Shown here in pieces: positions 30,406 to 57,600 of a DNA stretch of 64,000 bases. The notes under the pieces were generated by a model, which was given only the letters and a program-made list of their open reading frames with translations, did no database searches and was not told the DNA's origin. Numbering within the stretch: the first letter of the stretch is position 1; each line of letters opens with the position of its first letter. Made by a program: the position numbers and the translations under genes. Origin of the DNA: a virus (lineage: Duplodnaviria > Caudoviricetes); IMG/VR virus record IMGVR_UViG_3300042269_000666, positions 1 to 64,000 of that record. One strand, written 5' to 3'.

Positions 30406-31713
30406 ATGGCAAGGGTAACAAAAGGCAGAATTTACCTGCGCGGTAAATCAAAAAATTATTTCGCTGAATACACAATCAATGGTAAAACGACTCGGCGCTT
30501 ACTCCGTGATAATGACGGCAACCCTACAACTAGCAAAGCAACCGCAAACAAACTCTTGCATGATTTACTAAATCCGCTGGCTTTAAAGGAAAAGCAAGAG
30601 ACTGTACAGCAAATTGCACATAGCTTAGATGATTTAACAAAGCGTATTGAAAAAGCTGAAAAGGATTTAGAGCCAGTATTAAAACTGAGTGATGCATGGA
30701 GTGCTTACGAGTCTGCGTCAAACAGGCCAGATAGCGGAGAGCGTACCATGCAAGATTACGGCTTATATTATTCTGCCTTTTTTAAATGGGTTAAAAATAA
30801 TTATTCTGACTTAGCTTATTTGAAAGACATTACTGCAGATATAGCCAGCAAATACGCGACCAGTATAATTGAGGCAGGGAAATCTCCAGGAACATTTAAT
30901 AAGCATATTGGATTTTTAAGGCTCCTTTTTGACACACTGGAAGAAACAGCCAAAATTATTAAAAATCCTTTTGCGAAAATAAAGCGCAGAAAGCTAAAAA
31001 CGCAGTCAAGGCGAGAATTAACGATAGAGGAACTCTACAATATACTACAAGCTGCAACCGGTGATTTAACTTTATTATTAAGCTTAGGTACTTTTACTGG
31101 CTTACGTCTTGGTGATTGCTGTACCTTGAAATGGTCAGAGGTTGATCTGGTCAGGCGCGTGATCCGGCGCGTTCCCAATAAAACAGCAAGCAGGAGTACT
31201 TCAAAACCTGTGGTTATTGGATTGCCAAGTGCTCTGTATAATCAGTTGGCAGAGATACCAGCGGAAAAGCGTAATGGCTATATAATACCGGAATATGCTG
31301 AACTGTACAAGTCTCTTTCTACGCGTCCAAGGATAACAAGGCGTATTCAACGACATTTTGAAAATTGTGGTATACAATGTCATCGTGAGGGAACCGGACC
31401 GGGAACAGGCAAACGTGCGGTTGTAGAAGTCGGATTTCACAGTTTGCGGCATACATACGTTTCCCTACATGCTGAACGTGGAACACCAGCTGCCATTATT
31501 CAAGGGAACGTCGGTCACGGCAGTCCAGCAATGACGGCACATTATACCCACATTTCAGATAAAGCAGCAGTCAAGGTTGCAAAAGTACTGGATTTTAATG
31601 AATCAAATATTAAGACAAACCAGGAACGCCTGAAACTTCAAGAATTGATCGAGTCCGTACCTGATGACAAGATAAAGGATATAATTGATTTTATCACAAA
31701 GCAGGTGCAGTAA
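30406..31713 (+). CDS. int: Tyrosine recombinase / phage integrase
   Basis: TGLR, HSLRH, GH, HY catalytic residues. Confidence 0.95.
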   Translation: MARVTKGRIYLRGKSKNYFAEYTINGKTTRRLLRDNDGNPTTSKATANKLLHDLLNPLALKEKQETVQQIAHSLDDLTKRIEKAEKDLEPVLKLSDAWSAYESASNRPDSGERTMQDYGLYYSAFFKWVKNNYSDLAYLKDITADIASKYATSIIEAGKSPGTFNKHIGFLRLLFDTLEETAKIIKNPFAKIKRRKLKTQSRRELTIEELYNILQAATGDLTLLLSLGTFTGLRLGDCCTLKWSEVDLVRRVIRRVPNKTASRSTSKPVVIGLPSALYNQLAEIPAEKRNGYIIPEYAELYKSLSTRPRITRRIQRHFENCGIQCHREGTGPGTGKRAVVEVGFHSLRHTYVSLHAERGTPAAIIQGNVGHGSPAMTAHYTHISDKAAVKVAKVLDFNESNIKTNQERLKLQELIESVPDDKIKDIIDFITKQVQ

Positions 31714-31719
31714 GGTAAC

Positions 31720-32097
31720 TTATTTTTTTGCCAAAAGAGCCGCCAAAGCTTCTTCAAAAATGTGTCCGTGCAGGTATGCAAGAGCTTCATGATTGTCAAA
31801 GGTTATTTGTATATTGCATACCTGCAATATTCGCATTGCAATATGTAAGCACTCATGAGACAGTGTACCCATATTAGAAATAGAATGATTGTATTCAGGC
31901 ATCCAAATAAAACCTAAACATTCAGCTGTTTTGGCTTCTTCTAACAATTCGCTATATCCGGCATAAAAACACTGTTTTGACGGAGGCAGTTGAAACACTC
32001 TTTTGCGATATGCCTCACATTCTTTATAACTGCCTATAAATATTGTTACAGGAATATTATAGGTATTGTTTTCTAAGATTTTATAGACTTTTTTCAT
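31720..32097 (-). CDS. Hypothetical protein with HExxH metalloprotease-like motif
   Basis: SHECLH...HEALAY. Confidence 0.55.
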   Translation of the reverse strand: MKKVYKILENNTYNIPVTIFIGSYKECEAYRKRVFQLPPSKQCFYAGYSELLEEAKTAECLGFIWMPEYNHSISNMGTLSHECLHIAMRILQVCNIQITFDNHEALAYLHGHIFEEALAALLAKK

Positions 32098-33503
32098 GAT
32101 ACTGTGATAGTCCGTTTTAAGAATGTATAACGTTTACGGCTCATGATAAAGCCACCTGAGATTGCATCTACAAAGTCATCATGCGCACCACTGGGGAATT
32201 CCCTTAACTGCTCTAAGGCTGCTTTATTCCACCAGGCGCGTTCCATGAAAACATTACCGACTTCAAATAAAGGCTCCATTTCTCCGGCACGTGATACTTT
32301 ATCAGAACTTACAGTGACCTTATCAACTATACGCCGTCCCTCTAAGATGCTTTTTAAAATCGTATAGGTGTCTTTATACCCTCCGGCACTTTCCACCCCT
32401 ATACGGACGCTGGAACCGTCTCTATCGGTAGTTTTCAAAATAAGATTATTACGCTCCAAGGCTTCTTTTTGACAAAATGCCAAATCTTTGATGAATAGTT
32501 GCCAGAGGTTATTTTTACGCCTGACTCCAACCAACGCCCCAGCCGTAAAGTCAGGATCAGCTTTAGCGCGTTCTTTTTCTCCTGAGGCCAAGTCCCAAAA
32601 GCGGTAATAGCGGATATCTGATGGACATTTATCAATGATATTTACGTTATCAACCTTAAGCATGTTCCCTCCGCGCAAGACAGGCTCACACTGCAACAGT
32701 GCCGCACTTTGATAACTGCCCAATGTAGCAAACTGCTTTTCATACCATTCGGCAGAAAAGCGTTCTGGGAAAAGATAATTACCATTAATATCACGCGCCG
32801 GAAAGCTCATAATTTCGTATTTGGGAAAGTCCGGGTTATAATCCTCGCTATTTTTGTCATTACGGTTTTTTATTCTGCCGATAATATCATCTCTATGCCA
32901 TGGAGTAGCCAGTATTATGACAATATGCACTGGGGCAAGGCGTGTAATCAAATTGCCTCTGAAATTATCCCATTGCTTATTGCGCTCTGTCTCTGATTCG
33001 GCAATTGAGCGTCCACGCAGATAGTCATCTATAATTAAAACATCAGCGCCTTTACCAGTAGCACCTGCAGAGATTGTACACGACTGGAATTTTCCGTAAT
33101 GCTTTCTTATTCCCCAGGTAGAAACAGACGCTGATTCACTTGATATTTTTAAACTAGGAAAAACTTGACTGTATTCCGGAGACTTAAATACATTACGGGC
33201 ATCACGGCTCATAGCTTGAGATAATTCTTCTCCGTATGTGCTCAGGATAATTTCAGATTCAGGATTATGACCAAGGAAAAATGGAGGAAAATGACGGGAA
33301 ATGATTTCTGATTTACCATGCCGGAACGGAACCGTACAAATCAGGTAAGTAGATTTGCCGTTCTTATAGTCATACATTGCCCTGTCAAGCCGTGTGGTAA
33401 TGGCGCTAGTATGCCGCCCGACAATCAAAGGCCGGGAGTCCTGACGGACTGCTTTCATGAATTCAAGCATCCGGAATTTAGCAAGCAGTTTTTTCTTCAT
33501 CAC
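32094..33503 (-). CDS. terL: Terminase large subunit
   Basis: PFRHGKSE Walker A-like, LIIDDY Walker B, FWDLA and HDDFVDA nuclease motifs. Confidence 0.92.
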   Translation of the reverse strand: MMKKKLLAKFRMLEFMKAVRQDSRPLIVGRHTSAITTRLDRAMYDYKNGKSTYLICTVPFRHGKSEIISRHFPPFFLGHNPESEIILSTYGEELSQAMSRDARNVFKSPEYSQVFPSLKISSESASVSTWGIRKHYGKFQSCTISAGATGKGADVLIIDDYLRGRSIAESETERNKQWDNFRGNLITRLAPVHIVIILATPWHRDDIIGRIKNRNDKNSEDYNPDFPKYEIMSFPARDINGNYLFPERFSAEWYEKQFATLGSYQSAALLQCEPVLRGGNMLKVDNVNIIDKCPSDIRYYRFWDLASGEKERAKADPDFTAGALVGVRRKNNLWQLFIKDLAFCQKEALERNNLILKTTDRDGSSVRIGVESAGGYKDTYTILKSILEGRRIVDKVTVSSDKVSRAGEMEPLFEVGNVFMERAWWNKAALEQLREFPSGAHDDFVDAISGGFIMSRKRYTFLKRTITVS

Positions 33504-34180
33504 AAAGTTATCTTAAAATCAGGGGATTTGTCTTTTAATTCTTCTATTCGCTTTAAAGATGCCTGATATTCTTCTTCTGAATATTTAACCGGCATATGAA
33601 TTTCATCTGTAGAAAAGAGAGCATGGGTTGCTTTTTCAAGATCGTCCAGGCATTTGCCACCGTGCTGTGCTGCCGCATGCGCTAAAAAAAGTTCACTCCA
33701 CGCGTTGTATTTTCCGACTTGGTTTGCCAGCTTGAAAAGATTCAGCAAAATTGGAATAGGTTCCTGCATTAAAGCTTCAAACGTATAGCATGGAAATTTA
33801 TTAACGATTTTCGCCGTGATGAATTCAAAATTGATATTTCCTGATGCCCCGTCAGCAGAAGCTTTATCATCATGACGGATCACCCGTTTCGATATGCCAA
33901 AGAATAATTTTCCGGCAATATGTGCGGTGTCGCTGTAATCAAACAACAATAATTGTTTCCACTCTTTACTGGGCCATACTGTTTTGATTATTGCACGTAA
34001 ACGCTTACGACCTGCAGCCATGCTCTGCGGAGTTGGATTTTTCGCGACTTCGTCAAGAATATCAATATATTCATCATAGAACGTCGCAGGGAGCAAAGGT
34101 ACAAGAAACTCCCTGCGACGACGATCTATTACTTTGATAGACCGATTTTTTAAAAATGGAAAAAGTTTATTAAGCAGCAC
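33500..34180 (-). CDS. Probable tail assembly chaperone
   Basis: Position directly after tail tube gene; helical composition. Confidence 0.5.
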   Translation of the reverse strand: MLLNKLFPFLKNRSIKVIDRRRREFLVPLLPATFYDEYIDILDEVAKNPTPQSMAAGRKRLRAIIKTVWPSKEWKQLLLFDYSDTAHIAGKLFFGISKRVIRHDDKASADGASGNINFEFITAKIVNKFPCYTFEALMQEPIPILLNLFKLANQVGKYNAWSELFLAHAAAQHGGKCLDDLEKATHALFSTDEIHMPVKYSEEEYQASLKRIEELKDKSPDFKITL

Positions 34181-34658
34181 CGCTAGTCACCGCATAAAGT
34201 ACATCAGCATCAGCATTTGAGGTGTTCAGAACCGCCTCAAAAGTAATCTCGATACCATGATCTTTGGTGCCGTCAACGTCATAGGAAAAAGCTTTTTCTA
34301 CGACAGCGTTGTTTATGGTATGAATTCGATCTCCACCGATTTCAGACAATACCAATGGATGCTTTTCAGCTGCCGCCATTACATCGACACCAATTTCAGC
34401 ACCGGTAATTGATTTGCCGGCACCGAGCAACAATTCCAAAGCCGGAGTGATTTCTTTAAACTTAGCTTTGACGATCATTTTGATTTCAATGAGCTTTTTC
34501 GCTACAACGTTGCCTTTGGCCTGATTGCAGGTCACCTCGATATATTTATTTTCACGAGTGATATTTACCGCATCCTCAGTGCCGCCAAGCAGAACGTCAT
34601 TGTATTTGACCGAACAAGGCTTATCACAAAAATTCTCTACATTGTAACCATCGGGCAT
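34170..34658 (-). CDS. Probable major tail (tube) protein
   Basis: LGGTEDAVNITREN.YIEVTCNQ, ITFEA beta pattern; position. Confidence 0.7.
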   Translation of the reverse strand: MPDGYNVENFCDKPCSVKYNDVLLGGTEDAVNITRENKYIEVTCNQAKGNVVAKKLIEIKMIVKAKFKEITPALELLLGAGKSITGAEIGVDVMAAAEKHPLVLSEIGGDRIHTINNAVVEKAFSYDVDGTKDHGIEITFEAVLNTSNADADVLYAVTSGAA

Positions 34659-34720
34659 TTTATACCTCCATGTTTAAAAGTTTCAACTGCTTTACACCAT
34701 CTCTATATCAGTAAACGAAG

Positions 34721-34726
34721 TGTCAA
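34721..34726 (-). promoter_or_regulatory. TTGACA block-start motif ahead of tail tube gene
   Basis: TTGACA overlapping the upstream stop codon; one of nine similar sites. Confidence 0.45.
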
Positions 34727-35100
34727 CAAGTGAGAGTTTTCGCTTTTATTTTGAGGTTAGCGCTTACTCCTGTGACATCTTTGCCTTTGTGTGAAGTGGG
34801 ATAAGTAGCTATCGAGCCGATTTTCAGGATAGTCAAATTCTGTGAATAATACGGCAGGGACGCGTTTATTTTCGCGGCAATTCTCAAAGCATCGTCCCGG
34901 TCTTTGTACCGTCCCAGTATTTGTACCGTCAGGATTGGGATTGACGGGAAATTGTCAGGATCACAGGACTCTATGTGTATGCCGACCGCGTCGACTACTT
35001 TAGCGTTCAGGATTCCGCGAAATATGGTTTTATCAACGGTCATCTCAAGCTTTTCAGCAAAGTAACCTATCAATGCATGCTCTAAATCAATAATAGTCAT
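34723..35100 (-). CDS. Probable tail terminator protein
   Basis: Size and TVQILGR..D..ALRIA pattern; precedes tube gene. Confidence 0.6.
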   Translation of the reverse strand: MTIIDLEHALIGYFAEKLEMTVDKTIFRGILNAKVVDAVGIHIESCDPDNFPSIPILTVQILGRYKDRDDALRIAAKINASLPYYSQNLTILKIGSIATYPTSHKGKDVTGVSANLKIKAKTLTC

Positions 35101-35176: not shown

Positions 35177-37897
35177 ATGTCTGACGGTTTGGACTTAGGT
35201 AGAATCGGTTACGAAACTTATATAAACGATAAGCAGTATGAAAAGACACTACGCAAGATGGAGAATGATGCCGAACGTTCCGGCAAAAGTATAATGAAAT
35301 CGCTTTTCGGTGCGTTGAGTATTTATTCCGGCTATCGTTTCTTCAAGGGATTGGTGCAGTCTGCTTCTGATCTTATAGAAGCAGAAAACAAATTCAGGGT
35401 GGTATTCCAATCAATAGGTGATTCAGCAGAAAAAGCAAGGAAGCGACTGCAAAAGGCTTTCGGGCGTTCAAAACTGGAATCTGCGGAATTACTTGGAAAT
35501 GCAGGCGATATTTTAACTGGCCTTGGATTTAGTGCTGAAGCCGCATTGAAAATGTCATCTCAAGCTGCAGAGCTGTCAATTGATTTAACATCTTTGCAGA
35601 ATTATAAAGGCGGCGCCAAAGGTGCTATGGAAGCAATGACTGCTCTGATGGTAGGAGAAACTGAACGGGCTAAAGCATTAGGTATACTTGTTCGTCAGGA
35701 ATCTGCGGAATTCAAAAATTTAGTCAAGCATTATATGGAAGTTGAAAAGATGACCTTAGAGCAGGCTAAAGCACAAGCCGCTTTAGATATTGCTATCAAA
35801 CAATCAAAAAATGCTATCGGCGATTACGCGAGAACAGCGGAAGAATTTGCCAACTCTTCACGCCGTGCAGGTGAACGAATACAGGATATTGCCTCAAAAC
35901 TGGGAAAGAACCTCATTCCTTTGGCTTCAAAGATAATCCGGTTGATCTCATGGGGGACTGATGTGCTTGGAGATATGAACGGGACACTGGTAAGCTCTAC
36001 AGCATACTTCGGCATATGGATTGCCAGTATGTACGGATTGGAAAAAGTATTCGGCATAATGGGGAAAATTAAAAATGCCGTCAATGAGGCAGCTGTTAAT
36101 GCCGGTTATATGTCTGCGGAAGCTTTAGCCGCAAAGCAGGCAGAGGAATTAAAGGTTGCAGAAAACCTCAAATCAAACGCTATTCGTCGTGCCCAGAATA
36201 AGAAAAGGGCTCTTGATGAAGCCGTTAACTACAAGATGGAAGCAAAGACCGCTTTTAAAGCTGAACGCCAGAAATACGCGGAAGCCAAAAAAGCCGGAAC
36301 TGCAACCTTGGAGCAAAAAGAAAAACTTAAGAATGCGGCTGGCAAATACCGTCAGAGCCTGGCTAGTCTGACCCGTGCAGAAAGGCAATACCGACGCGCC
36401 CAGATAGCGGCAAATATTACTTCTGCCCGTGCAAGCGCAACGCTCAACAGAAATACAATAGCTACAAAAGTTAACGCAACCGCAAAATATGCTCTTGGAC
36501 GTGCCGTTTTATTTACCAAAGCCTGTTTTAAATCTTTGTGGGCCGCAATTGTCGCTAATCCGATTGGGGCGATACTGGCTGTGCTGGGATTGGCTATTTC
36601 CGCAATGAATGCCTGGGGAGATAGCATAAGGCAAACAGCCGCAGAACAAATAGAATTAGCAAAGAACGCCTCTGAGCTTGCAGATAAAAGGCTGGATTCA
36701 GGCAACAAACAACGCTTGGCTGACTTGGATAGTCTTGACAGGCTCAAGCGACTGGCAACCGCAGAACGCCTGAGTAATGATGAGAAAGCAGAAGCGAAAG
36801 AGCTTATTGATGATCTATCAAAACGCTACGGTGATCTTGGAATATCAATTGACAAGACTACAGGAAAATTGAACATTCAGGCCGGGGCATTTGATAAGAT
36901 CAATAAAAAAATGCTTGCTCAGGCTCAAGCTCAACGCAAAGCCGTCATTAAAAAGAAGATGGCTGAAATTGAAGCCCTGAAAGCGGAAAATAAAGCATTG
37001 GGAAGCTGGGGCGCTCAAGGCTTCTTCTGGATGAATTCAGAATCAAATAAAGCCAAGCAGGATGCCAACGCCAAAAGAATTAATGCCCTTTGGGATGAAG
37101 TCGGGGCAATGAAAATGGCTGTCAGAAATGCGACTGCTGTTGATAAAGAAAATGATCAGGAAAGGAAAAATAAAGTAAGACAAGCTAAAAATGCAGCAAC
37201 CAAGAAAAAATATAAAGAATATGAGGAGCAAGAAGCTGAATGGAGAAACAACCGTTTAAGCGACTATGAACGAGAGCTGAAAGCAATAAATGAAATTGTT
37301 GATGCTCAAAAAATGCGTGCGCAAGAACTTTATAGATTGAAAGAATTATCAAAAGAAGACCTTGAAGCCTCTTTAAAACTGGCAGAATCAGAACGTAAAC
37401 GCCTGACTGATAAGCTGAATGCCGAACGCCAAGCGGAAGAAGCCCGTAAACAGGCTCAGAGAGCGGAGTTATCCCGGGACCTTGAGTATAATCGATTAAA
37501 AGCCCAATTCCTTGCAGACGGCAAGCTTGACAGGCAGGAAAATATTTCACTGGCAGAAAAAGAGGTTGAACTACAGAAACAGCGTGTAGCGGAAGCCAAA
37601 AAGGCAGCGGAACAGGCAAAAGCCGAGAATAAGGCACAAACTGAAAATGCTTTGGCTCAAGCTCAGATAGAACTTGGTGAAAAAATGCGTGATCTTAAAG
37701 CCTTGACTGATGCCCCGTTAAAAGCACGGCGAAGCATATCTCAAACTGGCGGTTTTCTGGCAACAAGAGTTTCTCTGATCGGCAATCAAGACCCGGCAAA
37801 AGAAACAGCCAAGAACACCAAAGACATCGTAAAACATGTTAAGAAAACCGAGCAGAATACTAAAAAGATAGCTGAAAAGACTTTGACGTTTGATTAA
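35177..37897 (+). CDS. Tail tape measure protein of prophage 2 (inverted relative to neighbours)
   Basis: Long Ala/Lys helical protein; C-terminus AKETAKNTKDI..TLTFD resembles prophage 1 AERTATATEDI..ELAFE; start set at ATG after AGGAG. Confidence 0.88.
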   Translation: MSDGLDLGRIGYETYINDKQYEKTLRKMENDAERSGKSIMKSLFGALSIYSGYRFFKGLVQSASDLIEAENKFRVVFQSIGDSAEKARKRLQKAFGRSKLESAELLGNAGDILTGLGFSAEAALKMSSQAAELSIDLTSLQNYKGGAKGAMEAMTALMVGETERAKALGILVRQESAEFKNLVKHYMEVEKMTLEQAKAQAALDIAIKQSKNAIGDYARTAEEFANSSRRAGERIQDIASKLGKNLIPLASKIIRLISWGTDVLGDMNGTLVSSTAYFGIWIASMYGLEKVFGIMGKIKNAVNEAAVNAGYMSAEALAAKQAEELKVAENLKSNAIRRAQNKKRALDEAVNYKMEAKTAFKAERQKYAEAKKAGTATLEQKEKLKNAAGKYRQSLASLTRAERQYRRAQIAANITSARASATLNRNTIATKVNATAKYALGRAVLFTKACFKSLWAAIVANPIGAILAVLGLAISAMNAWGDSIRQTAAEQIELAKNASELADKRLDSGNKQRLADLDSLDRLKRLATAERLSNDEKAEAKELIDDLSKRYGDLGISIDKTTGKLNIQAGAFDKINKKMLAQAQAQRKAVIKKKMAEIEALKAENKALGSWGAQGFFWMNSESNKAKQDANAKRINALWDEVGAMKMAVRNATAVDKENDQERKNKVRQAKNAATKKKYKEYEEQEAEWRNNRLSDYERELKAINEIVDAQKMRAQELYRLKELSKEDLEASLKLAESERKRLTDKLNAERQAEEARKQAQRAELSRDLEYNRLKAQFLADGKLDRQENISLAEKEVELQKQRVAEAKKAAEQAKAENKAQTENALAQAQIELGEKMRDLKALTDAPLKARRSISQTGGFLATRVSLIGNQDPAKETAKNTKDIVKHVKKTEQNTKKIAEKTLTFD

Positions 37898-38172
37898 TCA
37901 ATAGAGGTGAAATACGGGCAGGTTTCTTCGCCTGTCCAAATTTCATCTGATATATACTTGAATTTGGGGCAGGAACGATTCACGGGCTGGCGAATATCGC
38001 TATGCTTATAAAGCTTGCAGTCATAACACTGTTTGCAGGAATGACGGCTATCGTCTAAAGACATGCATTCTGCCCCGTCAATGATTTTTATTCTTCCTTT
38101 TATTTCCGGAAGATTTCGGATTGCTTCAAGGTTACGCTCCTGTTCTTCCTTGCTGACTTCATTTAACTTCAT
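37894..38172 (-). CDS. Small Cys-rich protein; candidate partner/immunity gene of upstream MuF-like protein
   Basis: CKQCYDC...CPKF...I.TG...CPY; overlaps upstream stop. Confidence 0.55.
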   Translation of the reverse strand: MKLNEVSKEEQERNLEAIRNLPEIKGRIKIIDGAECMSLDDSRHSCKQCYDCKLYKHSDIRQPVNRSCPKFKYISDEIWTGEETCPYFTSID

Positions 38173-48252: not shown

Positions 48253-48276
48253 CTAGGTGATAACGTATTTTTGCGG

Positions 48277-49143: not shown

Positions 49144-49144
49144 T

Positions 49145-50011
49145 ATGGATAAGGTAAAAAAGGGTGATCCGTTAAGACTTTCGGCAGGATTTATCAATGA
49201 TACCATTGATTCAAACGTCAGGAGCAAACAACATGATTTGACCTTGAATAATTTACGCCTGAAAAATCTTGGTATTGTTACTGTACGGAATAATTCTGAT
49301 AAAGACCGCAAGATTTTTGAACCGATCAATATTGATGGCATTTTGCTTGATATCGAAAAGGATGGCGGCATAAAAACCAATGGCATCTTTAAAGGGGTGC
49401 TCGATGATAAGATTGATATTTTCGCGGTGTGCCTGAATGCCATTCCTAAAACTAAAACCGGACGTGCCATGCTGGTTGGTATTACTCCGGCCAGAGTGAA
49501 AATTGAGAGTGCAACCCATAAGTACATCACAGTAAAAGACGGCATACTTGTTTCCTGCTCATCAGGTCCGGCACGTTTGTTAGGTTCTCAAAAAGACAAT
49601 GGCGAAACATGGGGCATGATTTACCTCGGCGGTACTGGCAGCGGAGGCAATAACTATACCGGTTTTTTCAGGCTTGAACCTGATGGCGAGAATACCGATA
49701 CCATAAATATTGTAGATGGCTCCGATACCCTTGGCGATAATTGCGGTATTTATGTATCTGGTATTGATAAAACTTTAGTACCCAAAACCAGCCTGAAAAT
49801 ATCCACTGAATCTTACATAATGCTTTACGCTACTTATGCAGAGGAAAAGTGGACTATTGAAATAAAAGCCGAACCCAGCATGCCGGATTTTTCCGCTGAA
49901 AAGTTCACAGCCTTGCTGGGTATCGTTAAATGGGATACCGAAAACAAGAAAATGGGTCAGCCCATACAGATTTGGAATAACGGAATTATCTACAATAACA
50001 GGTATAGTTAA
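49145..50011 (+). CDS. Tail protein; homolog of 2874..3773
   Basis: C-terminal half closely matches the prophage 1 copy. Confidence 0.65.
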   Translation: MDKVKKGDPLRLSAGFINDTIDSNVRSKQHDLTLNNLRLKNLGIVTVRNNSDKDRKIFEPINIDGILLDIEKDGGIKTNGIFKGVLDDKIDIFAVCLNAIPKTKTGRAMLVGITPARVKIESATHKYITVKDGILVSCSSGPARLLGSQKDNGETWGMIYLGGTGSGGNNYTGFFRLEPDGENTDTINIVDGSDTLGDNCGIYVSGIDKTLVPKTSLKISTESYIMLYATYAEEKWTIEIKAEPSMPDFSAEKFTALLGIVKWDTENKKMGQPIQIWNNGIIYNNRYS

Positions 50012-50193
50012 GGCTTTTTGATTATGGTATATATTATTTTTGCTTTATCCAACTTATCTGTTAGTTCTTTTAAGGTTCTTCCGGAATATTTAGATTCTTC
50101 ATCCATTACTACGCTGTAACATCCGTTGTCGTATTTTCTGATGCTTGTTTGGGTGCCATTAATTGTAGCTTTTCCAATAAATTCGTAATTCAT
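50008..50193 (-). CDS. Small 61-aa antisense protein; homolog of 3778..3963
   Basis: AGGAG RBS; own promoter-like sequence; conserved in both prophages. Confidence 0.8.
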   Translation of the reverse strand: MNYEFIGKATINGTQTSIRKYDNGCYSVVMDEESKYSGRTLKELTDKLDKAKIIYTIIKKP

Positions 50194-50218
50194 TTTACGC
50201 TCCTTATGAGTTATTTAC

Positions 50219-50247
50219 ATTATACATGATTACGTATGATGTTTCAT
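50219..50247 (-). promoter_or_regulatory. Probable sigma70 promoter for antisense mini-gene
   Basis: ATGAAA-17 nt-TATAAT on minus strand. Confidence 0.6.
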
Positions 50248-50279
50248 TTATTTATAAAAAAAATCAAGGAAATTAAATA

Positions 50280-51179
50280 ATGCAAAAACCTACTGCCTGG
50301 AGCGACTGGAATGATTTACCGATACTGGCCTTGCCGTCAGTTAAAGGCTACGAGATGTATGAAGCGATCCGCGAACGCATTGAATATGTTTTCCCTGAAA
50401 TGATTGCTGAGGATATGCCGTCCGCTTTGCGTCCACTGCTTACAGATTTTAACCCGAATAGCGATCATAAGGTTATTGAGCGGAATATGCACAAAGCTAT
50501 TACGGAACTTATCCCATGGTACCGGAACTGGACAAGTGACGATGCAAGGCTTTGGAATGAAGCAGATTTACTTGCTGCGCTGGGAGAAGAAAAACGCATA
50601 GAGCCCAACCCTTATTTTTTAAGCGCGAAATGGCTGAAACAGGCATTCAGGATCGTCAATTACCTCCGAAAAAAAGAGGACATCATTTCTATTACTTGGA
50701 TTGATGAAGCCGAACCGGGATACACGGAGGGCAATACTTATGACGAACACAAAGCAATGTTTGAGGATGCAATCGACTTTTTCACGGCAGTTATCCAACC
50801 AGGTGGTGGAAGTGGCGGTGATATTTTTGGTTCTTCTGGCAGGCCGTCAAATGTGCTGTACTATTCCTGTGACCGCGATCCATGCGATTCTATGAACAGC
50901 TTTGTACAGGCATTCAATGCTTTGAAATCGCAGTATACAGCAACAAAATACACGGTCGGTTTGTTTGTGGATTCATCCGGATCAATGAGTTTGCGTACTA
51001 TACAGCCAGCCTATGATAACTTTGTAGCTTATATCAAAGAGTTTTATCCTGATTCACGTCTTGTGGAACGCACTGCCGGCAATGAAGCATGGCTTATATG
51101 GACTAAGGAGTATATAAGCCAGTTGAGATTTAACTTTGAGTTTAAAGAGGAAGAAGAAGCGGAATCACCCGCGAGCTAA
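50280..51179 (+). CDS. VWA/MIDAS-motif tail-associated protein; homolog of 4050..4937
   Basis: GLFVDSSGSMS. Confidence 0.7.
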   Translation: MQKPTAWSDWNDLPILALPSVKGYEMYEAIRERIEYVFPEMIAEDMPSALRPLLTDFNPNSDHKVIERNMHKAITELIPWYRNWTSDDARLWNEADLLAALGEEKRIEPNPYFLSAKWLKQAFRIVNYLRKKEDIISITWIDEAEPGYTEGNTYDEHKAMFEDAIDFFTAVIQPGGGSGGDIFGSSGRPSNVLYYSCDRDPCDSMNSFVQAFNALKSQYTATKYTVGLFVDSSGSMSLRTIQPAYDNFVAYIKEFYPDSRLVERTAGNEAWLIWTKEYISQLRFNFEFKEEEEAESPAS

Positions 51180-51533
51180 ACGAATAGTTCGCGGAAGTTC
51201 TGATTTCGCTTGTTTGAGAAGCCTTGCGGCACGGGGAGCTATGCCCGGATTATCGCCGTTAATCAGCGTGAAAGACTGGCTTAAGCCTCCGGGCAAGCTT
51301 TGACCAGTGACCACCTTACCTTCAGTTTGCTTGTTGTAATTCCTGATAAGAAATACAGCCTGTTCGCAATATGCTTTTTTCAGCGTGTCGCTTTCTTCTG
51401 CATTATTCAATATCAGGTCATTACGCGCCATCTCCAGAGCTGCTTCACGGGTAGCTTCATCTTGTGAAGTCCAGTAAGCGCCATCAAGGTGTATGGCAAA
51501 ATAATTGTTCGCAAATTCCAGTAATTCAGTCAT
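51165..51533 (-). CDS. Probable head-tail connector/adaptor
   Basis: FANNYF...W......EAALEMA, KKAYCEQA.FL, IAPRA.RLL; position after capsid. Confidence 0.65.
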   Translation of the reverse strand: MTELLEFANNYFAIHLDGAYWTSQDEATREAALEMARNDLILNNAEESDTLKKAYCEQAVFLIRNYNKQTEGKVVTGQSLPGGLSQSFTLINGDNPGIAPRAARLLKQAKSELPRTIRLARG

Positions 51534-51539
51534 GATTAT

Positions 51540-52118
51540 TTACTCCGTAAACTCCTTGAGAGCCTCGTATTCTTCAATGCTTTTAGGCTGATACCTGCCA
51601 CGGAAATAACTCTTTTTGAGCTTTTCACACCAGCCGGCATTCTTGAAGTGCAGAACAGGAATTTGTTTCTGCTTTTTAGCCTGATCTTTGCTGGCTTGTT
51701 CTGCGGCTTCTCTGGCTGCTTTTTCCGCGTCCGCTTTAGCTTTTGCCTCTGCTTCGGCTTGCTGTCTTTTGGCAAAATCAGCTTCCGTTTCCGGTTTGCC
51801 CGGGTCACCCTGTAAGCCTGGTTCACCGTTGGGATCGCCATGGGCTTGAATGATAGCTTCGCACATTTCAATCAATTCTTCATGGCTGTATTCTTCGATG
51901 GGCTTGAGTTCCTGTTTGCTGTTCCTGCAAAGGAAATCATAAACAGCTTCAGGATCATTAAGGTCTACTACCTCTGTTTCAGAAGTGTCTCCACCCTTTG
52001 CTACTCCGGTGGCTTCATCATACATCTTTTCAAGTTCTTCAAGCTTGTAGGAATTGATGCCTTTTTCCGGCTTCTTACCCATATCAGTCAGCTTGTCATA
52101 GATTTCTTGTTTAGTCAT
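51540..52118 (-). CDS. Hypothetical protein after capsid gene (short helical repeats, acidic)
   Basis: Two K.E...YS/K.EEL.EM segments. Confidence 0.55.
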   Translation of the reverse strand: MTKQEIYDKLTDMGKKPEKGINSYKLEELEKMYDEATGVAKGGDTSETEVVDLNDPEAVYDFLCRNSKQELKPIEEYSHEELIEMCEAIIQAHGDPNGEPGLQGDPGKPETEADFAKRQQAEAEAKAKADAEKAAREAAEQASKDQAKKQKQIPVLHFKNAGWCEKLKKSYFRGRYQPKSIEEYEALKEFTE

Positions 52119-52134
52119 AACTCACTCCGTGAAT

Positions 52135-52159
52135 AAAAAGGCGGCATATTTCAGCCGCC
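52135..52159 (-). terminator. Intrinsic terminator after major capsid gene
   Basis: GGCGGC-TGAAATAT-GCCGCC-TTTTT on minus strand. Confidence 0.8.
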
Positions 52160-52172
52160 ACGATTATCGGAA

Positions 52173-53360
52173 TTAACCGGTAATGCCATCCATAAGGATG
52201 TGGTTAACTCCCACGTTTTCAACGATGAACCCGACAGAACCCTGAATGGATTTTCTCACTTCACGGCTGGATGCGCTGGGCTCATCCTTTTTCTGCAGGC
52301 CGTCATCAGTGAGCCAACCCTTTTGGCAGTCGGACTGCTTAACGATCGGCAGTCGGTTATTGCCCATATCAGAATCAACACGAACCTTGATGATGTGTCC
52401 CTCAAAGTCGATAGAGTCGATATACACACCAGCGGTATGGTCGGCTTTGGTAGTCTGAACAGCCAGCTGACTGTTAGCCATGTTGAAAGTATTGATAATA
52501 CCCTTGTTGGTCGGAGATGCCCAAATGGTATCTACAACGCCGCCTGCGTCAAAAACCATCTTGATAGCAGCAACAACTTTTTCTTCGGCAAGAGCGCCGG
52601 TATTGTTGTAGAGCAACGGGGCACGGTTGCCATTGTTAGTATCAGTCAACTGGGAATACAATCCGGCAGACATATAGCGGTCGGAATCATCGACTGCTTT
52701 CTGTTTGCGTCCATGGATAGACATACGAGCGAGAGTTTCTGCAACCCTGATCATTGCTTCCTGAACGATGATATAAGTTGCATCTGCAACACTCAGGCCT
52801 TTTCCCACGTAAATGGCATGCTTTGTCCAGTCCATGACTTCAAAGATGGTCTGCACATAGTTGCTGTAAACGCTGGTAAGCTCAGACATGCTCTTAACGT
52901 TCTTGAGGTCGGTATCCGCACCAGCGTAACCAATGACAGAAAACGCGGTCTGATCAGCATGGGCTGCGGCAGTAGAATCACCTGCGCCACGAGCATATAC
53001 ATCAATGGTATTTGCCGCACGGTCTACAGCTTTGATAATGACCACTTCATCTTCCACCTGCAGAACATGACCGATATTCAGGCCTTTAAGTATATCGGCA
53101 GGCATTTTCAGTCCGGAAACAGCGACATTATCCCAACCGCCAGCAGCTCCATCGCCAATGAGTCCATCACGGCTGGTTTTGCTTCGGCTGTAGATATCAA
53201 ACTGTTTATTGGTCAACGGGGTGTCAGGTGCGCCCATACCCTGATAAAAGGCACCTTTAAACGGACCAAGTTCGATAGCTTTGGCTACTGCCAGCACTAC
53301 GGGGTCTTTCTTGGCTACAGGGTCTGAGAACTCTGTGAATTGTCCGAATTCAAAAGACAT
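52173..53360 (-). CDS. Major capsid protein (DUF5309/SU10-like)
   Basis: Follows scaffold; SNYVQTIFE motif; terminator downstream. Confidence 0.8.
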   Translation of the reverse strand: MSFEFGQFTEFSDPVAKKDPVVLAVAKAIELGPFKGAFYQGMGAPDTPLTNKQFDIYSRSKTSRDGLIGDGAAGGWDNVAVSGLKMPADILKGLNIGHVLQVEDEVVIIKAVDRAANTIDVYARGAGDSTAAAHADQTAFSVIGYAGADTDLKNVKSMSELTSVYSNYVQTIFEVMDWTKHAIYVGKGLSVADATYIIVQEAMIRVAETLARMSIHGRKQKAVDDSDRYMSAGLYSQLTDTNNGNRAPLLYNNTGALAEEKVVAAIKMVFDAGGVVDTIWASPTNKGIINTFNMANSQLAVQTTKADHTAGVYIDSIDFEGHIIKVRVDSDMGNNRLPIVKQSDCQKGWLTDDGLQKKDEPSASSREVRKSIQGSVGFIVENVGVNHILMDGITG

Positions 53361-53365
53361 ACTCC

Positions 53366-53956
53366 TTACTCCTTATTTTGGTTGTTGTCGATTTCGGTTT
53401 GTAATTCTATTACTCTTGAGGCCTCACGTTTTGTCAGGTTATCTTTACCCAACAATTCGTTAAGCTCCGCTTCCTGGGTCTTGGTTTTGTCCTCAGGAGT
53501 TTTTTCATTTCCTGAACCGCCACCACCTTTATTTACTTCCGCAGTGAAATATTTCGGCTTATCCTTTTTCAGGTTGTCCATAAAAGATTCGCCGTCTTTT
53601 TCGAGATCAACTTTGTCTTTGCCGACAAGGTATTTGAGGTACTCTGGATCAGTAAACTTATGCTTAGAGGCCAGCTTGCTTACTGCAAGATCAAAATCCT
53701 GTGCGGTCTTGGCAGCCTTGACATCATCATTCTCTTTTTTGAGCTTTTCGTTTTCTTTTTGAAGCTTTTCCACTTCCGAAAGTTTGTCGTTTTCGGCATC
53801 GTCAATTTTCTGCTGAGCTTCTGCAAGCTGTTGAGCAAGTTCTTTTTCCTTGCTGTCATCATGCTTCGGCTCGTTGTATTCCTGCAGAAACTTCTTTTCC
53901 GCGTCAGAAAGCTCTTCACCTTTCAAAACTTTTGCTAGGAGTACTTTGATTTTCAT
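53366..53956 (-). CDS. Scaffolding protein
   Basis: Charged coiled coil, KLSEVEKLQKE, KPKYF, GGGGSG tail. Confidence 0.8.
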   Translation of the reverse strand: MKIKVLLAKVLKGEELSDAEKKFLQEYNEPKHDDSKEKELAQQLAEAQQKIDDAENDKLSEVEKLQKENEKLKKENDDVKAAKTAQDFDLAVSKLASKHKFTDPEYLKYLVGKDKVDLEKDGESFMDNLKKDKPKYFTAEVNKGGGGSGNEKTPEDKTKTQEAELNELLGKDNLTKREASRVIELQTEIDNNQNKE

Positions 53957-54177: not shown

Positions 54178-54915
54178 ATGAATAATCAACAAATACAGGG
54201 TTGTAAGGCGTTAACTGAAAATGTATTAGAGTATTTAGATGAGTTTATTCGCAATGCAATATCAAGAAGTTCAAATATTCAATGTGTCAAAAGCATAGCT
54301 CATGATTTGAATGTAATGAATGAATTTATTGGTCAAGAATCTCCAGATTGGATAAAAAATTTGATAGGGTTATGTGCTCGAGGACAAACAGACCCAAATA
54401 CAACACAAGAAATAATTAAGCTTAGGTCAGCTATTGAGTATTTCTCTTGGGAAGATTTTTATAACGATGATGGAGATATAGACAAATTAGACTATGATAA
54501 AATATTTACCGAAGAAGCCAATAAAAATGGGTTGAATGAGGCTCTTGATCGTTTAGTTGAATGCTTGGAAATAATTAAAAATGAGTCTCAGTTTAATTTT
54601 TCTAAGCAAACACGCATTGATATTGAAACTTTAATAATTGGACTAAAAAAGTCAAAAGGGAAATCAGAATCTTCAATAAAAACATGGGTGGAGTCAGTTT
54701 GGGCACTTATAAAAACTTGTATTCCTCATGCTGATAAAATTGAAGCATTAAACAAATTGCTTTCTGATACTCAACACGCTTATAATGATGTATCTTTTAA
54801 AATAATTGAAGCAAAGAACATGGTTATAGCAAAAATTCAAAATGAATTTTGCAATCAGAAGCTCCTGCCCAAATTTGAAGAGGCTAAGCAAATTGCAAAC
54901 AATAATTCTGAGTAA
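54178..54915 (+). CDS. AT-rich hypothetical protein (moron) opposite to late genes
   Basis: Long clean ORF, very low GC, own upstream AT-rich region. Confidence 0.65.
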   Translation: MNNQQIQGCKALTENVLEYLDEFIRNAISRSSNIQCVKSIAHDLNVMNEFIGQESPDWIKNLIGLCARGQTDPNTTQEIIKLRSAIEYFSWEDFYNDDGDIDKLDYDKIFTEEANKNGLNEALDRLVECLEIIKNESQFNFSKQTRIDIETLIIGLKKSKGKSESSIKTWVESVWALIKTCIPHADKIEALNKLLSDTQHAYNDVSFKIIEAKNMVIAKIQNEFCNQKLLPKFEEAKQIANNNSE

Positions 54916-54918: not shown

Positions 54919-55404
54919 TTAAAAATCACCTTTCAGTAACTTATCCAGGAACTTTTCGCGCTCCTCGAAGCTCATATTCTCAATGAGCTTTTCAGCCATA
55001 GCTACTTCGGTGGCATTCTCAACCTCAGCTTCAAGCTTGTGCTTGTCGCTCCACTTTTCAGGACGGCGGTTAACCAGCCAGAACTTGATCGCGTTCACGT
55101 CCGGTTCAAAGGTTTTAGTCTTGACGGTTTGTTTAACAATTTCACCATCGCCATCGGTTTCCAGATGCCGTTCGCGGACTTCAAAGCCCAAACAACGCTT
55201 AAGCAGGGCGTTCTCAACCTTGGTATCAACCGGAGCTTTCCCGCGCGCGATAGCCTCCAAAAACTCTAGGTGCTTCTTCTGGTAATTGTAGTAAGTTGCG
55301 GTCGATATGCCGAGTTTTTGGGCGATCTGTTCGTCGTTAAGTCCCTCTCTCGCAAACCCTTCCGCAAGTATTGGAAAGTTTTCGTTATATTTGCCTTTGC
55401 TCAA
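54919..55404 (-). CDS. terS: Terminase small subunit (HTH type)
   Basis: EG.AREGL.DEQIAQKLGIS..TYYNY.KKH.EF, VENALLKRC.G, PDVNAIKFWL.NRRPEKW. Confidence 0.8.
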   Translation of the reverse strand: MSKGKYNENFPILAEGFAREGLNDEQIAQKLGISTATYYNYQKKHLEFLEAIARGKAPVDTKVENALLKRCLGFEVRERHLETDGDGEIVKQTVKTKTFEPDVNAIKFWLVNRRPEKWSDKHKLEAEVENATEVAMAEKLIENMSFEEREKFLDKLLKGDF

Positions 55405-55907
55405 AATAGTTTCTCCTGAACCGCATCACCCTCTACAAACTGTTTCTTGTATCTGTTTCTTGCAGCGGTAATTTTCGACAATGTCAGGCAGAAGATACTT
55501 TTCAGTTCCGGATGATTTCTTACCGCAAATAAAAGGGCTGTATTAATGCGCTGTCGAGATACGCCTCGCTCCCTTGCCATTTCAGCCTGTGTAATATTCG
55601 GATTGCGAACCAAGGCACTAAGGAGCGAGAGCGTATTATCATCAAGAGAAAGTATGTAATTCAGAACTTCTGACAAATTCTCGTAATTATCACTTTTACC
55701 GATTTTATCACACTCGTTGCTTTTACCTGCAACACGAAAAGAGTTCTTGTCGTAATCTACTGCATTACGAACTCTGTTGGCGTTATCAGGGTTGGGACTG
55801 CTGGTCACATATTCGCACGAGTCCCAGTACTCACAAACATTTTTGCAGGATTGGTCGAAGTGTCCGAAACATTCACCTGCGGTTTTTTCGTAGTTTCGTT
55901 CTGTCAT
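55401..55907 (-). CDS. Cys-cluster + HTH protein; candidate late transcription regulator
   Basis: CFGHFDQSCKNVCEYWDSC; NPNITQAEMARERGVSRQRINTAL; start set at ATG 55907. Confidence 0.6.
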   Translation of the reverse strand: MTERNYEKTAGECFGHFDQSCKNVCEYWDSCEYVTSSPNPDNANRVRNAVDYDKNSFRVAGKSNECDKIGKSDNYENLSEVLNYILSLDDNTLSLLSALVRNPNITQAEMARERGVSRQRINTALLFAVRNHPELKSIFCLTLSKITAARNRYKKQFVEGDAVQEKLF

Positions 55908-55946
55908 TTTTTTACTGCACCCTTTTATTTTTCGGCAAAGTGTCAA
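55908..55946 (-). promoter_or_regulatory. TTGACA-N15-AAAGGG block-start motif
   Basis: TTGACA at 55941-55946. Confidence 0.5.
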
Positions 55947-55955
55947 CACAGCCAA

Positions 55956-56969
55956 TCAGGTCTTTTCACTAAGATTGTCAATAGCGTTTTTGTCACGAGT
56001 AAAAATATCCATTATCTCGGCGAAGCTCTTGCTGTTTATGACACGTCCCCCAATGGTGTTTTGCATCAGAGTCCTGAAACATGCAGATGAATTTTCTTTC
56101 ATGGCCTTTGTGTACTTGAAGTTTTCATGATCATAAAGAAAATGATTCAGATTAGCCTTGTTGGTTGTGAACCCGGGAACGCCCTCAACACCACAGCAAC
56201 AAAGGGAATCGCCCATATTCCGTAACCTGTTTTCGCCTGAAAAGAATTTCATGCCAAGGTCATGGGCCGTCTGCCTGATCTGTACGAAGTCCGCTTTCAG
56301 CTTTTCAACAGGATAGACGTAATCGGCGCCGCTTTTTATCATGCCCTTGCGCTTCTGGAAATACTTGATCCCCTCCACAATAATGCCATATACTCCGGCT
56401 TCTTTGTACCGTGGCAAATTACTGATAATATCATTCTTTACCTCACGTACATACGGCTGTATCCTGATAATAAGCCTTTTGCAGTGTTGAGAAATTACCG
56501 CAATATCCTTAAGCCGTTGTTCAAAGGTCGGGGCACCTGGTTCAATAACATCGAACTTCGGAGATATCAGAGATACTTGCACAACGGCATTGCATTGTTT
56601 CAGTGAGTTCAGATACTCAGGCTGTACGAGGCAGGTTGTGCCCTTGGTCGATACAATAAAAGGATATTTCGTTTCCGCGAATACTTTCAGGCACTGCAAA
56701 GAGCTTTTAAATTTGTTCTCTATAGGCTGAAAAGGGTCAGACATACCGCCCCAATGCAACGGTATATCCCAGTCGCACCAACGCGTTTCAGTTGTGCGCT
56801 TTCCGTCAATGAACCTTTTTAGCGCGGTGGCTGATTCATCGAGCTTAATATTTGATATATCAGTCTTTCGGGTCACAAAACAATATTTGCACCCGTGCGA
56901 GCAACCGGAATAATTATCAAACCTGATCGGCAGGTCGCATAAAATAATCTGACTTCCACACTTTGGCAT
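55956..56969 (-). CDS. Radical SAM protein (spore photoproduct lyase-like)
   Basis: CSHGCKYC (CxxxCxxC), GGMSDPFQP.E, TKG. Confidence 0.85.
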   Translation of the reverse strand: MPKCGSQIILCDLPIRFDNYSGCSHGCKYCFVTRKTDISNIKLDESATALKRFIDGKRTTETRWCDWDIPLHWGGMSDPFQPIENKFKSSLQCLKVFAETKYPFIVSTKGTTCLVQPEYLNSLKQCNAVVQVSLISPKFDVIEPGAPTFEQRLKDIAVISQHCKRLIIRIQPYVREVKNDIISNLPRYKEAGVYGIIVEGIKYFQKRKGMIKSGADYVYPVEKLKADFVQIRQTAHDLGMKFFSGENRLRNMGDSLCCCGVEGVPGFTTNKANLNHFLYDHENFKYTKAMKENSSACFRTLMQNTIGGRVINSKSFAEIMDIFTRDKNAIDNLSEKT

Positions 56970-57553
56970 TATGCATCCCCCTCACAAAGCTTGATAATCT
57001 GTTCAACGACTGCCTCCTTGCCGTATTCCTTGATGTACTTATCAATTTCCTCTTTTTTGCTTTTGGGAAAGATAAGAGTGACCGCAAAGGAATCAGAATC
57101 AGCGTTTATGGAGTTCTGGAAGTTGTTTTCCAGCAAATCATCAAGAATGCCGTCCGTTCGTTCAAAGGTTTCAATTTCCTCGTCAGAAAATCCGGTTGCA
57201 TCAACAAGGGAGCCCATGCCGGCAAGCAGCTCGGCAACTTTCTCATCAGAAAAAACAGAAAGATCACTGGTTTTGTTGTCTGCCAGTGCCAGTGCTTTGC
57301 GCTTGTCGTCAGCGGTCTTTAAATCGGTTCGCTTGATGGCGATCAATTCAGTCCCGTCCGATTCGATAACGCGAACAGGCAGCCCTAAGGACTGTGCCTG
57401 TTCATATACCCCGTTTCCGGCTATCAGCATGTTTTCAGAGTCAACCAGCACTGAACGTCCAGTGCCCAGCTCTTCGAGACTGCTTTTTATTGCGTTCTTG
57501 TTGTGATCGTCATGTATGCGAGCATTTTGATTGTCAAAAACAATATCATTCAT
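56969..57553 (-). CDS. ParB/Srx-like N-terminal domain protein
   Basis: NARIH...AIKSSLEELG.GRSVLVD..NMLIAG, ALALADNK. Confidence 0.75.
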   Translation of the reverse strand: MNDIVFDNQNARIHDDHNKNAIKSSLEELGTGRSVLVDSENMLIAGNGVYEQAQSLGLPVRVIESDGTELIAIKRTDLKTADDKRKALALADNKTSDLSVFSDEKVAELLAGMGSLVDATGFSDEEIETFERTDGILDDLLENNFQNSINADSDSFAVTLIFPKSKKEEIDKYIKEYGKEAVVEQIIKLCEGDA

Positions 57554-57600
57554 CGTAAAACCTTATAAGTTGTAAATCTATTATGTGTCCGTCCTGTCAA
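57554..57600 (-). promoter_or_regulatory. TTGACA block-start motif ahead of ParB gene
   Basis: TTGACA at 57595-57600 followed by CATAAT after 9 nt. Confidence 0.45.

Follow-up and report, generated by a model that had tools for sequence, protein, structure and literature searches.

Scrambled morphogenesis genes under purifying selection in a temperate tailed phage

Introduction

The 64,000-nucleotide stretch of Caudoviricetes DNA analyzed here, referred to throughout as the window, comprises bases 1–64000 of a 76,506-bp IMG/VR provirus record (IMGVR_UViG_3300042269_000666). The record contains the tail end of one prophage (prophage 1, 1 to ~22 kb, GC ~0.52), a defence-type island, and a second prophage (prophage 2, GC ~0.42). 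The virion genes of prophage 2, which lie in blocks on both strands, are the subject of this study.

The order of head and tail genes is among the most dependable regularities of tailed phages and is the basis of prophage finders, completeness estimators, and module-based annotation. These genes are normally colinear, running terS-terL-portal-MuF-scaffold-capsid-neck-tail-tape measure (TMP)-tip-fibre. Here, we describe a lineage in which this order is broken at nine places, the genes are intact under strong purifying selection, and close relatives have the textbook order.

Gene content of prophage 2

Gene identities were assigned by PHROG and Pfam scans, with weak calls backed by fold search and synteny. 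Between 31.7 and 57.6 kb, we found one copy each of terS, terL, portal, MuF, scaffold, capsid, tube, tape measure, tip genes, and collagen fibre (Table 1). Every reading frame in this late region is intact, and the lengths are similar to those of homologs. These results bear out a preliminary description of this DNA, made from the letters alone, which had reported a full virion gene set shuffled over both strands, free of frameshifts and pseudogenes, with terL about 21 kb from terS. The measured distance is 21.4 kb, and the plus-strand islands span 35132–37897, 48313–51179, and 54178–54915. The main virion labels in that description also hold; its "connector," "closure," "tail terminator," and "lysis-like" genes were named by position only, and none of the last was recognizable as a lysis gene.

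The tail tube was assigned from its predicted structure. Comparing a profile with PDB sequences gave chance-level matches only, so a fold search was used instead; the model is of moderate quality (pLDDT 66), and its structural neighbours are all tail-tube-fold proteins, the tube of the gene transfer agent RcGTA among them. The weak tape measure call is backed by homologs (28–79% amino acid identity) that follow the g226 genes in colinear relatives and lie beside g125b in scrambled ones, and one homolog from the colinear relatives matches tape-measure PHROGs. No sheath family was matched in any scan, though several genes carry no assignment. The genes of inverted block I are homologs of genes located after the tape measure in prophage 1 and in the colinear relative G006.

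Prophage 2 extends well past 57.6 kb, where the preliminary description had ended it. Beyond that point lie genes for a primase, RusA, methyltransferases, a clamp, a helicase, Sak4, an SbcC-like ATPase, and Ant; a CI repressor gene in divergent orientation follows at ~75 kb. The early genes are directed leftwards into the late region, and the element spans from a partial tRNA at 30216–30275 to the CI/Ant switch at ~75 kb of the 76.5-kb record. Modules for integration (integrase, partial tRNA att fragment) and immunity (CI repressor, Ant) are both present, as are the Caudoviricetes hallmarks of large terminase, portal, and HK97-type capsid. Together, the integrase, tRNA fragment, CI/Ant pair, and early genes indicate a temperate phage of ~46 kb integrated at a tRNA, and the single copy of each virion gene excludes two nested phages. 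ARAGORN called no whole tRNA at the left att site, and an Rfam scan of 30–58 kb gave no match at E 0.1. CheckV completeness is 85% for this record and 62–63% for colinear relatives.

Table 1. Features of prophage 2, with positions in the window; letters A to J denote the conserved late segments
Feature	Position	Strand	Evidence or remark
Partial tRNA, 3' part, ~57 nt, Leu-like; left att fragment	30216..30275	-	ends in GGTTCGAGTCCCACCCCGGGTACCA on the minus strand
Tyrosine integrase	30406..31713	+	phrog_1 E 1e-45
Block G+B (g125b, tube, g226, terL, g125a)	31720..35100	-	
g125a	31720-32097	-	
terL	32094-33503	-	phrog_38 E 2e-74
g226, chaperone position	33500-34180	-	
Tail tube g162, 162 aa	34170-34658	-	predicted model matches tail-tube folds
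g125b	34723-35100	-	
Tape measure (TMP), 921 aa, inverted relative to neighbours	35177..37897 (ORF opens 35132)	+	phrog_339 E 3e-5, weak
Block J+E (collagen fibre, g432, g406, g120, g134, g160, g122a, MuF, g108)	37894..45738	-	
MuF	38159-39604	-	phrog_581 E 6e-21
Collagen fibre	43744-45738	-	41 PHROG tail-fibre families
Block C+F (portal, g117, neck-like g130)	45781..47940	-	g130 phrog_5, weak
Portal	46465-47940	-	phrog_145 E 1e-45
Divergent control region between portal and g276, 372 nt	47941..48312		"iteron region" of the preliminary description
Block I, inverted (g276, g288, g299)	48313..51179	+	
g61, antisense within block I	50008-50193	-	
Block D (scaffold, capsid, g192, g122b)	51165..53956	-	four-gene run also in relatives
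Major capsid, SU10-type HK97	52173-53360	-	Pfam SU10_MCP E 3e-16
Scaffold	53366-53956	-	phrog_194 E 1e-13
g245, moron-like insert between terS and scaffold	54178..54915	+	no family match
Block A (ParB-like, radical SAM, HTH184, terS)	54919..57553	-	
terS	54919-55404	-	phrog_309 E 2e-43
HTH184, Cys-cluster helix-turn-helix protein	55401-55907	-	HTH_24 match
Radical SAM	55956-56969	-	weak Radical_SAM match
ParB-like	56969-57553	-	phrog_620 E 3e-22
Cassette, tube	34726		
Cassette, g125b	35138		
Cassette, TMP	35141		
Cassette, fibre	45778		best in record
Cassette, portal	47975	-	
Cassette, g276	48277	+	
Cassette, scaffold	53996		
Cassette, HTH184	55946		

The late gene order is permuted relative to colinear relatives

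The window portal has hundreds of relatives at ~45–50% identity, nearly all in Lentisphaerota/Victivallales; no exact copy is on record. A single-protein portal scan of IMG/VR returned nothing, and an alignment query was required. Profiles of every window protein were built from the portal-relative loci and mapped back onto them. Many of these loci are colinear on one strand, in the order (ParB-radical SAM-)HTH184-terS-[terL]-portal-scaffold-capsid-g192-g122b-MuF-g117-neck-g125b-tube-g226-TMP. A scan with a terL alignment identified relatives with 57–65% identical terL (L092, L094, L097–L099, and the IMG/VR proviruses L172 and L174), all of which are one-stranded; the two proviruses are 44–46 kb long, and terL occupies its textbook slot between terS and portal in these relatives. 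Further colinear Victivallales prophages are L027, L028, L037, L047, L068, L074, and L087. One colinear relative assembled in full, G006, is colinear from ParB through the collagen fibre. The reference order of the family is terS-terL-portal-scaffold-capsid-g122b-MuF-g117-neck-g125b-tube-chaperone-TMP-tip-fibre.

Against both G006 and L174, the window is the permutation [1,4,-9,3,6,10,5,-8,7,2]. Read in the direction of late transcription, its segments are A (terS), D (scaffold-capsid), inverted I (tip), C (portal), F (g117-neck), J (fibre), E (MuF), inverted H (TMP), G (tube), and B (terL). There are thus ten conserved segments with nine breakpoints, three of the segments being inverted, in place of the canonical one-strand order. 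The breakpoint graph has 2 cycles for 10 blocks and implies at least nine cut-and-join steps; this is a lower bound, as an exact reversal distance was not reached in a search to depth 6.

The colinear order is common to tailed phages generally, which identifies the window order as the derived one, and the terL relatives, which keep the textbook order, agree with this polarity. The colinear prophages and proviruses (L174, which is IMGVR_UViG_3300042816_000235, L099, L027, and L087) resemble prophage 2 in terL (57–65% identity), capsid (54–62%), terS (~46%), HTH184 (44–47%), and portal (38–49%). They share its ParB-HTH-terS lead-in, with the order ParB-(radical SAM)-HTH184-terS retained, and an upstream cassette, described below, ahead of portal, scaffold, g117, and tube. 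They differ in having their late genes on one strand and in textbook order; in the window, these genes fall into ten segments, of which three are inverted, and terL comes last. Prophage 1 serves as an internal control, as the preliminary description had proposed: homologs of g276 (31%), g288 (44%), g61 (62%), g299 (80%), and the fibre (55–70%) are contiguous there after the tape measure. That description had also allowed that the order might be standard in a known phage family. Among 50,697 GenBank phage records, no cultured family has it; a capsid tblastn search gave no match, and terL matched at 30% or less only.

Support for a real and inherited order

Contigs from two wastewater sequencing runs of different studies (X1 and X2, from the Logan assemblies; one run may be the source of this DNA) cover 31701–40016, 43154–48654, and 48625 onwards at 100% identity. 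They span the junctions g125b|TMP, TMP|g108(-MuF), neck|fibre, portal|g276, and g299|g122b, and are broken only within adhesin genes at 40.0–43.2 kb. Two more runs (X3 and X4) yielded short pieces only, with or without differences, and are uninformative on order.

The junctions also recur in relatives. Among the Ga0172377 contigs, from another metagenome, L091 contains the portal/g276-g288-g299 junction with a portal at 80% amino acid identity, and L095 joins TMP to g125b-tube-g226-terL with a terL at 88%. Nine genes compared between these contigs and the window have dN/dS values of 0.04–0.13 at saturated dS (1.5–3.9), indicating that the genes have long been kept by selection in the scrambled layout. 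A more distant version of the late set (46–60% amino acid identity) is present in the finished genome of a deep-sea isolate, WC36. It shares six derived adjacencies with the window: the tip block divergent from portal, portal-g117-neck, neck-fibre, fibre...MuF, TMP divergent from g125b, and g226...terL. The fibre-to-MuF run recurs in WC36, and the succession of portal by g117 rather than scaffold is common to the window, WC36, and a clade of lone portals described below. Relative to the window, WC36 has the entire [TMP | g125b-tube-g226-terL] unit in inverted orientation.

These data support the conclusion that the scrambled late order is real, inherited, and kept under selection. Of the two origins that the preliminary description had considered, a stable new architecture agrees with the X1/X2 contigs, L091/L095, the six WC36 adjacencies, and the low dN/dS values.

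A shared cassette precedes block-first genes

Block-first genes are preceded by a cassette consisting of (G)GTTGACA, 12–15 nt, an A-run, and a ribosome-binding site, with the ATG 36–40 nt after the T of TTGACA. To avoid circularity, we built a 32-column matrix from 52 distinct sites that precede the portal gene in other genomes; both strands of the entire record were then scanned with it. The best scores in the record are at the fibre (20.1 bits), g276 (16.9), TMP (15.7), scaffold (14.7), g279 (14.0), g125b (14.0), and HTH184 (13.9), with portal (11.9) and tube (11.8) next. The late region contains 6 matches of at least 13.5 bits against 0.45 expected, a number reached in 0 of 200 shuffles, and all six sit 36–40 nt 5' of a block-first start codon. 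For the tape measure, the ATG lies 36 nt on from its cassette at 35141. This spacing moves two gene starts of the preliminary description to what are likely the true ones, at 35177 for the tape measure and 55907 for HTH184. At the TMP/g125b junction, the two boxes stand back to back in a palindrome, TTGTCAATATTGACAA.

The colinear relatives hold TTGACR ahead of portal (6/10), scaffold (7/10), g117 (5/10), tube (7/8), and terS (4/7), and never ahead of capsid, MuF, neck, g226, or g192. The matrix also flags the portal, scaffold, g117, and TMP starts in G006 and L099, and the g125b, MuF, portal, scaffold, and HTH184 starts in WC36. The suggestion of individually promoted modules in the preliminary description thus gains support at the sequence level from the enrichment of a cassette, modelled on other genomes, at block-first genes; the cassette itself is a putative promoter.

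A cassette-like site at 60371–60405 (a TTGAGA variant, 14.0 bits) precedes g279, upstream of ParB, and its position suggests that the unassigned genes at 57581–60371 may already belong to the late regulon. In a separate observation, the spacer after TTGACA in L027, L047, L074, L099, and G006 (5' of portal and g117) complements the ribosome-binding site, giving a hairpin with an A-rich loop. If transcribed, such a hairpin would mask the ribosome-binding site, which would be a poor fit with TTGACA being the −35 element of the same transcript.

The divergent control region between portal and g276 contains a pair of cassettes that face outward, at 47975 on the minus strand and at 48277 on the plus strand, together with ACGATAC/GTATCGT repeats at 48055–48256. 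Within it, a noncoding stretch of ~95 nt (47990–48085) with a GGGGG-N10-CCCCC hairpin is near-identical in L091, the 80% relative, despite saturated dS. This stretch may be a packaging site or a regulatory element.

HTH184 is a candidate late activator

HTH184 has an N-terminal Cys cluster and a C-terminal helix-turn-helix (HTH). It lies directly upstream of terS, or ends small head clusters, in 22 loci; in the window its gene (55401–55907) abuts terS at 55404. HTH184 has no PHROG match, and Pfam returns only the generic HTH_24 and MarR_2. Its best PDB profile match is KorA/ArdK (E 3e-4), and a fold search found nothing better than E 0.2, using a poor model (pLDDT 62). A sigma region 4-like protein was also considered, for which there was no convincing sequence or fold match.

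The RinA/ArpU/LtrC late activators of Gram-positive phages (PMC3152322, PMC3753634) are similar to HTH184 in being small HTH proteins whose genes open the late region, just upstream of terS. They differ in that they have no sequence or fold match to HTH184 and drive one promoter upstream of terS, whereas many sites are proposed here. We regard HTH184 as a candidate late activator.

Dispersed gene sets in Lentisphaerota

In WC36 (genome G002), the late set is split over 1.233–1.260 Mb (L088, L005/L030) and 1.614–1.634 Mb (L086), 374 kb apart. The HTH184-terS and scaffold-capsid-g122b units are at the distant locus B, which also has two unrelated opposite-strand genes where the window has g245. 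We considered locus B as part of one scrambled prophage and rejected this assignment, as it is a partial set adjoining a separate, unrelated lambda-like prophage with its own gpA terminase, lambda-type portal, and ClpP. At locus A, an antisense trio of TIR/TPR (Thoeris-like) genes lies between g226 and terL. In a gene-level RNA-seq table for WC36 (PMC11361711, supplement 1), LJT99_05290, 05300, and 05340 are up 15–68 fold with laminarin. We identify these as terL, MuF (minor capsid), and portal, respectively; the tag spacing fits the WC36 locus map exactly.

Dispersal goes further in other Lentisphaerota. Lone portals, in which portal is followed by g117 only and no other family gene lies within 10 kb, occur in 47 species-representative genomes. 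In zth2, portal-g117 lies beside rpmF-plsX-fabH, scaffold-capsid-g122b-tube lies 9 kb upstream by glnA, gyrB, and recA, and the HTH gene is ~190 kb off. In the complete chromosome G003, a lone portal, capsid-tube units, and a lone HTH gene are 1–2 Mb apart. Dispersed units of these types carry cassettes of 17–22 bits. The loci behind this pattern are L003/L010 and L090 (zth2), L004, L007, and L183–L184 (G003), and ~47 among L006–L085.

Lone portals form one clade (55 rows, support 92), with the window portal outside it, among phage-type portals. Its sister is a clade of 18 mini-clusters with the order terS-portal-scaffold-capsid-g122b-HTH184 (portal support 100). These mini-clusters, in eighteen species (including L042, L045, L052, L056, L059, L062, L063, L066, L067, L076, L077, L082, and L085), lack a terL between terS and portal, and tail genes are absent from their vicinity. 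Shared flanking genes link 26 of the 47 lone-portal loci, and dN/dS for the lone portals is 0.04–0.22 at unsaturated dS. We had tried rpmF-plsX-fabH as a conserved neighbour of the lone portal; it is present only in zth2/ZTH and one Victivallis genome, and the broader flank comparison was used instead. From its sequence features, the dispersed Victivallales set looks like a domesticated particle gene set, a candidate system akin to gene transfer agents (GTAs). The searched literature holds no report of a gene transfer agent in Lentisphaerota.

Interpretation and alternatives

Prophage 2 is probably a temperate phage of the siphovirus type, apparently intact and ~46 kb long, with a Lentisphaerota (Victivallales-like) host and a late order that is a fixed, inherited permutation. 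Prophage 2 presumably makes virions. The cassettes suggest how such an order could arise. The late genes of this family would not depend on one long late transcript, and the colinear members, with cassettes ahead of several internal genes, would already consist of several internal units. Every relocated block of the window appears to start with a cassette; with one at each start, blocks could be moved or inverted without loss of expression, and selection would retain only gene content and the order within blocks. HTH184, encoded upstream of terS, would activate the cassettes. It is plausible that scrambling is tolerated because each block carries its own signal.

Several observations weigh against this interpretation. 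X1 and X2 may stem from one sampling campaign, and rare variants would be hidden in contigs. In the terL tree, the scrambled members are not resolved into a single clade. A second att copy was not found in the searched right end of the record (bases 74001–76506), and no lysis genes were recognized in PHROG/Pfam scans. As for the cassette, TTGACA is the general −35 consensus, and elsewhere in Lentisphaerota loci a match scoring 15 bits or more turns up about once in every 77 kb of strand; the cassette may thus be no more than a strong promoter of the ordinary host type. The distance from TTGACA to the A-run (12–15 nt) is unlike that of a standard sigma-70 −10 element. The g122b|MuF and g226|TMP breaks are not at cassette-bearing starts in most colinear relatives, and the MuF gene of the window is without a cassette of its own.

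Among the alternative explanations, a domesticated GTA-like element, whose blocks the host keeps as a regulon and whose genome is never packaged as a unit, would make gene order irrelevant. The WC36 set, split over loci 374 kb apart and still induced, fits this model, as do zth2 and ~50 other species that hold portal-g117, scaffold-capsid-tube, and the HTH gene among housekeeping genes, with the same cassette and under purifying selection. Prophage 2 itself does not resemble such an element, which would lack integration, immunity, and replication genes of its own: its late genes form one contiguous element with integrase, att fragment, CI/Ant, primase, helicase, clamp, Sak4, and RusA, the integrase adjoins the tRNA att fragment, a full replication module accompanies the CI/Ant switch, and its portal groups with phage-type portals. 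We therefore judge domestication of the window element unlikely. Decay of a defective prophage scrambled by host rearrangements would account for the unrecognized lysis genes and the unseen right att site, and scrambled order is common in cryptic prophages. This reading is improbable given that all frames are intact, the early region is complete, dN/dS is 0.04–0.13 at saturated synonymous sites in relatives with the same junctions, and six derived adjacencies are kept in WC36 at 46–60% amino acid identity.

The remaining two alternatives bear on the order itself. Programmed, ongoing rearrangement, in which invertible or shufflon-like segments flip within the population, is suggested by the three inverted blocks, the palindrome at the TMP/g125b junction, and the inversion of the [TMP | g125b-terL] unit between the window and WC36; a mechanism acting at block boundaries had also been raised in the preliminary description. 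Neither gains support from the data. The inverted blocks lack flanking inverted repeats (block ends gave only chance-level matches of 20–30 nt), scans of window proteins revealed no invertase or any recombinase other than the integrase, the Logan contigs of all four runs contain no alternative joints at block junctions, orientation is identical in L091 and L095, and the g122b|MuF break does not fall at a signal-bearing start in relatives. We thus find ongoing rearrangement very unlikely. An assembly artefact would be conceivable for a metagenome-derived provirus record whose GC shifts from ~0.52 to ~0.42 near 22 kb. That shift lies outside the late region, between prophage 1 and the defence island, whereas the junctions are spanned at 100% identity by contigs of two runs and recur in other metagenomes (L091, L095) and in the finished WC36 genome. 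Mis-assembly, which the preliminary description had named as a possible refutation, is largely refuted and hardly credible.

Comparison with known systems

A fixed, inherited permutation sets prophage 2 apart from the siphoviruses it otherwise resembles. In lambda/HK97/SPP1-type siphoviruses, the late genes are colinear and are transcribed from one long operon or a few of them. They share with prophage 2 an HK97-fold capsid, portal, two-subunit terminase, scaffold, tube, chaperone, tape measure, tip, and fibres; they are likewise temperate and encode an integrase and a switch of the CI type. They differ in that the order and strand of prophage 2 are broken at nine places. T4-type late genes are scattered over both strands as many units, each of which has a late promoter of its own, and prophage 2 likewise has its virion genes in several units, in both orientations, each behind a short shared signal. 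Unlike T4, prophage 2 is small, temperate, and non-homologous, with a signal of the TTGACA type versus TATAAATA in T4; gp55/gp33-like factors were not found in prophage 2.

Gene transfer agents with split loci, such as RcGTA, have been described (PMC5721377, PMC12946183). The dispersed, conserved head, portal, and regulator genes of the relatives (zth2, WC36, and ~50 species) are comparable, and the tube fold matches the RcGTA tube among others. The window element differs in being contiguous and in having integration, immunity, and replication modules.

Implications

The evidence above supports a temperate tailed phage whose morphogenesis genes are scrambled yet kept under selection. The scrambled/colinear pair offers a direct test of what gene order serves, be it co-transcription, timing, or assembly, and a cassette per block is a concrete explanation for tolerated scrambling that could be tested in cultured WC36. 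Tools that expect terS beside terL, or head before tail, will mis-score such elements. The dispersed Victivallales sets would escape prophage callers and may be a new GTA-like system.

More tentatively, cassette-driven autonomous units under a Cys-cluster HTH activator may have repeatedly freed these genes from colinearity, once giving the stable scrambled lineage of the window, the Ga0172377 contigs, and WC36, and once giving a chromosomally dispersed, vertically inherited GTA-like regulon across Victivallales. We lean slightly against this broader scenario and offer it as a possibility; should it hold, the regulon would be the first GTA-like system in the PVC group, and the family would be a natural experiment on what normally keeps phage morphogenesis genes in synteny.

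Other features of the record

The defence-type island between the prophages (23715–29748) contains a Dcm-like gene and genes for a 720-aa ATPase/kinase, a receiver protein, and a DUF4365 protein. The antisense gene g61, encoding 61 aa, occupies the same slot between two tip genes in both prophages (50008–50193 and 3778–3975), with 62% amino acid identity. The N-terminal 50 to 120 residues of g406 (41219–42439) match the heads of two otherwise unrelated prophage 1 proteins within 9339–12794 (48% and 36% identity). Across the adhesin-like genes g160–g432 (40016–43154), the contigs of all runs break, depth is up 3–5 fold, and there are many variants; these genes seem to be shared and exchanged with other phages in the community. 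Loose contig ends repeat at 41172/41215 and at 50713 in several runs.

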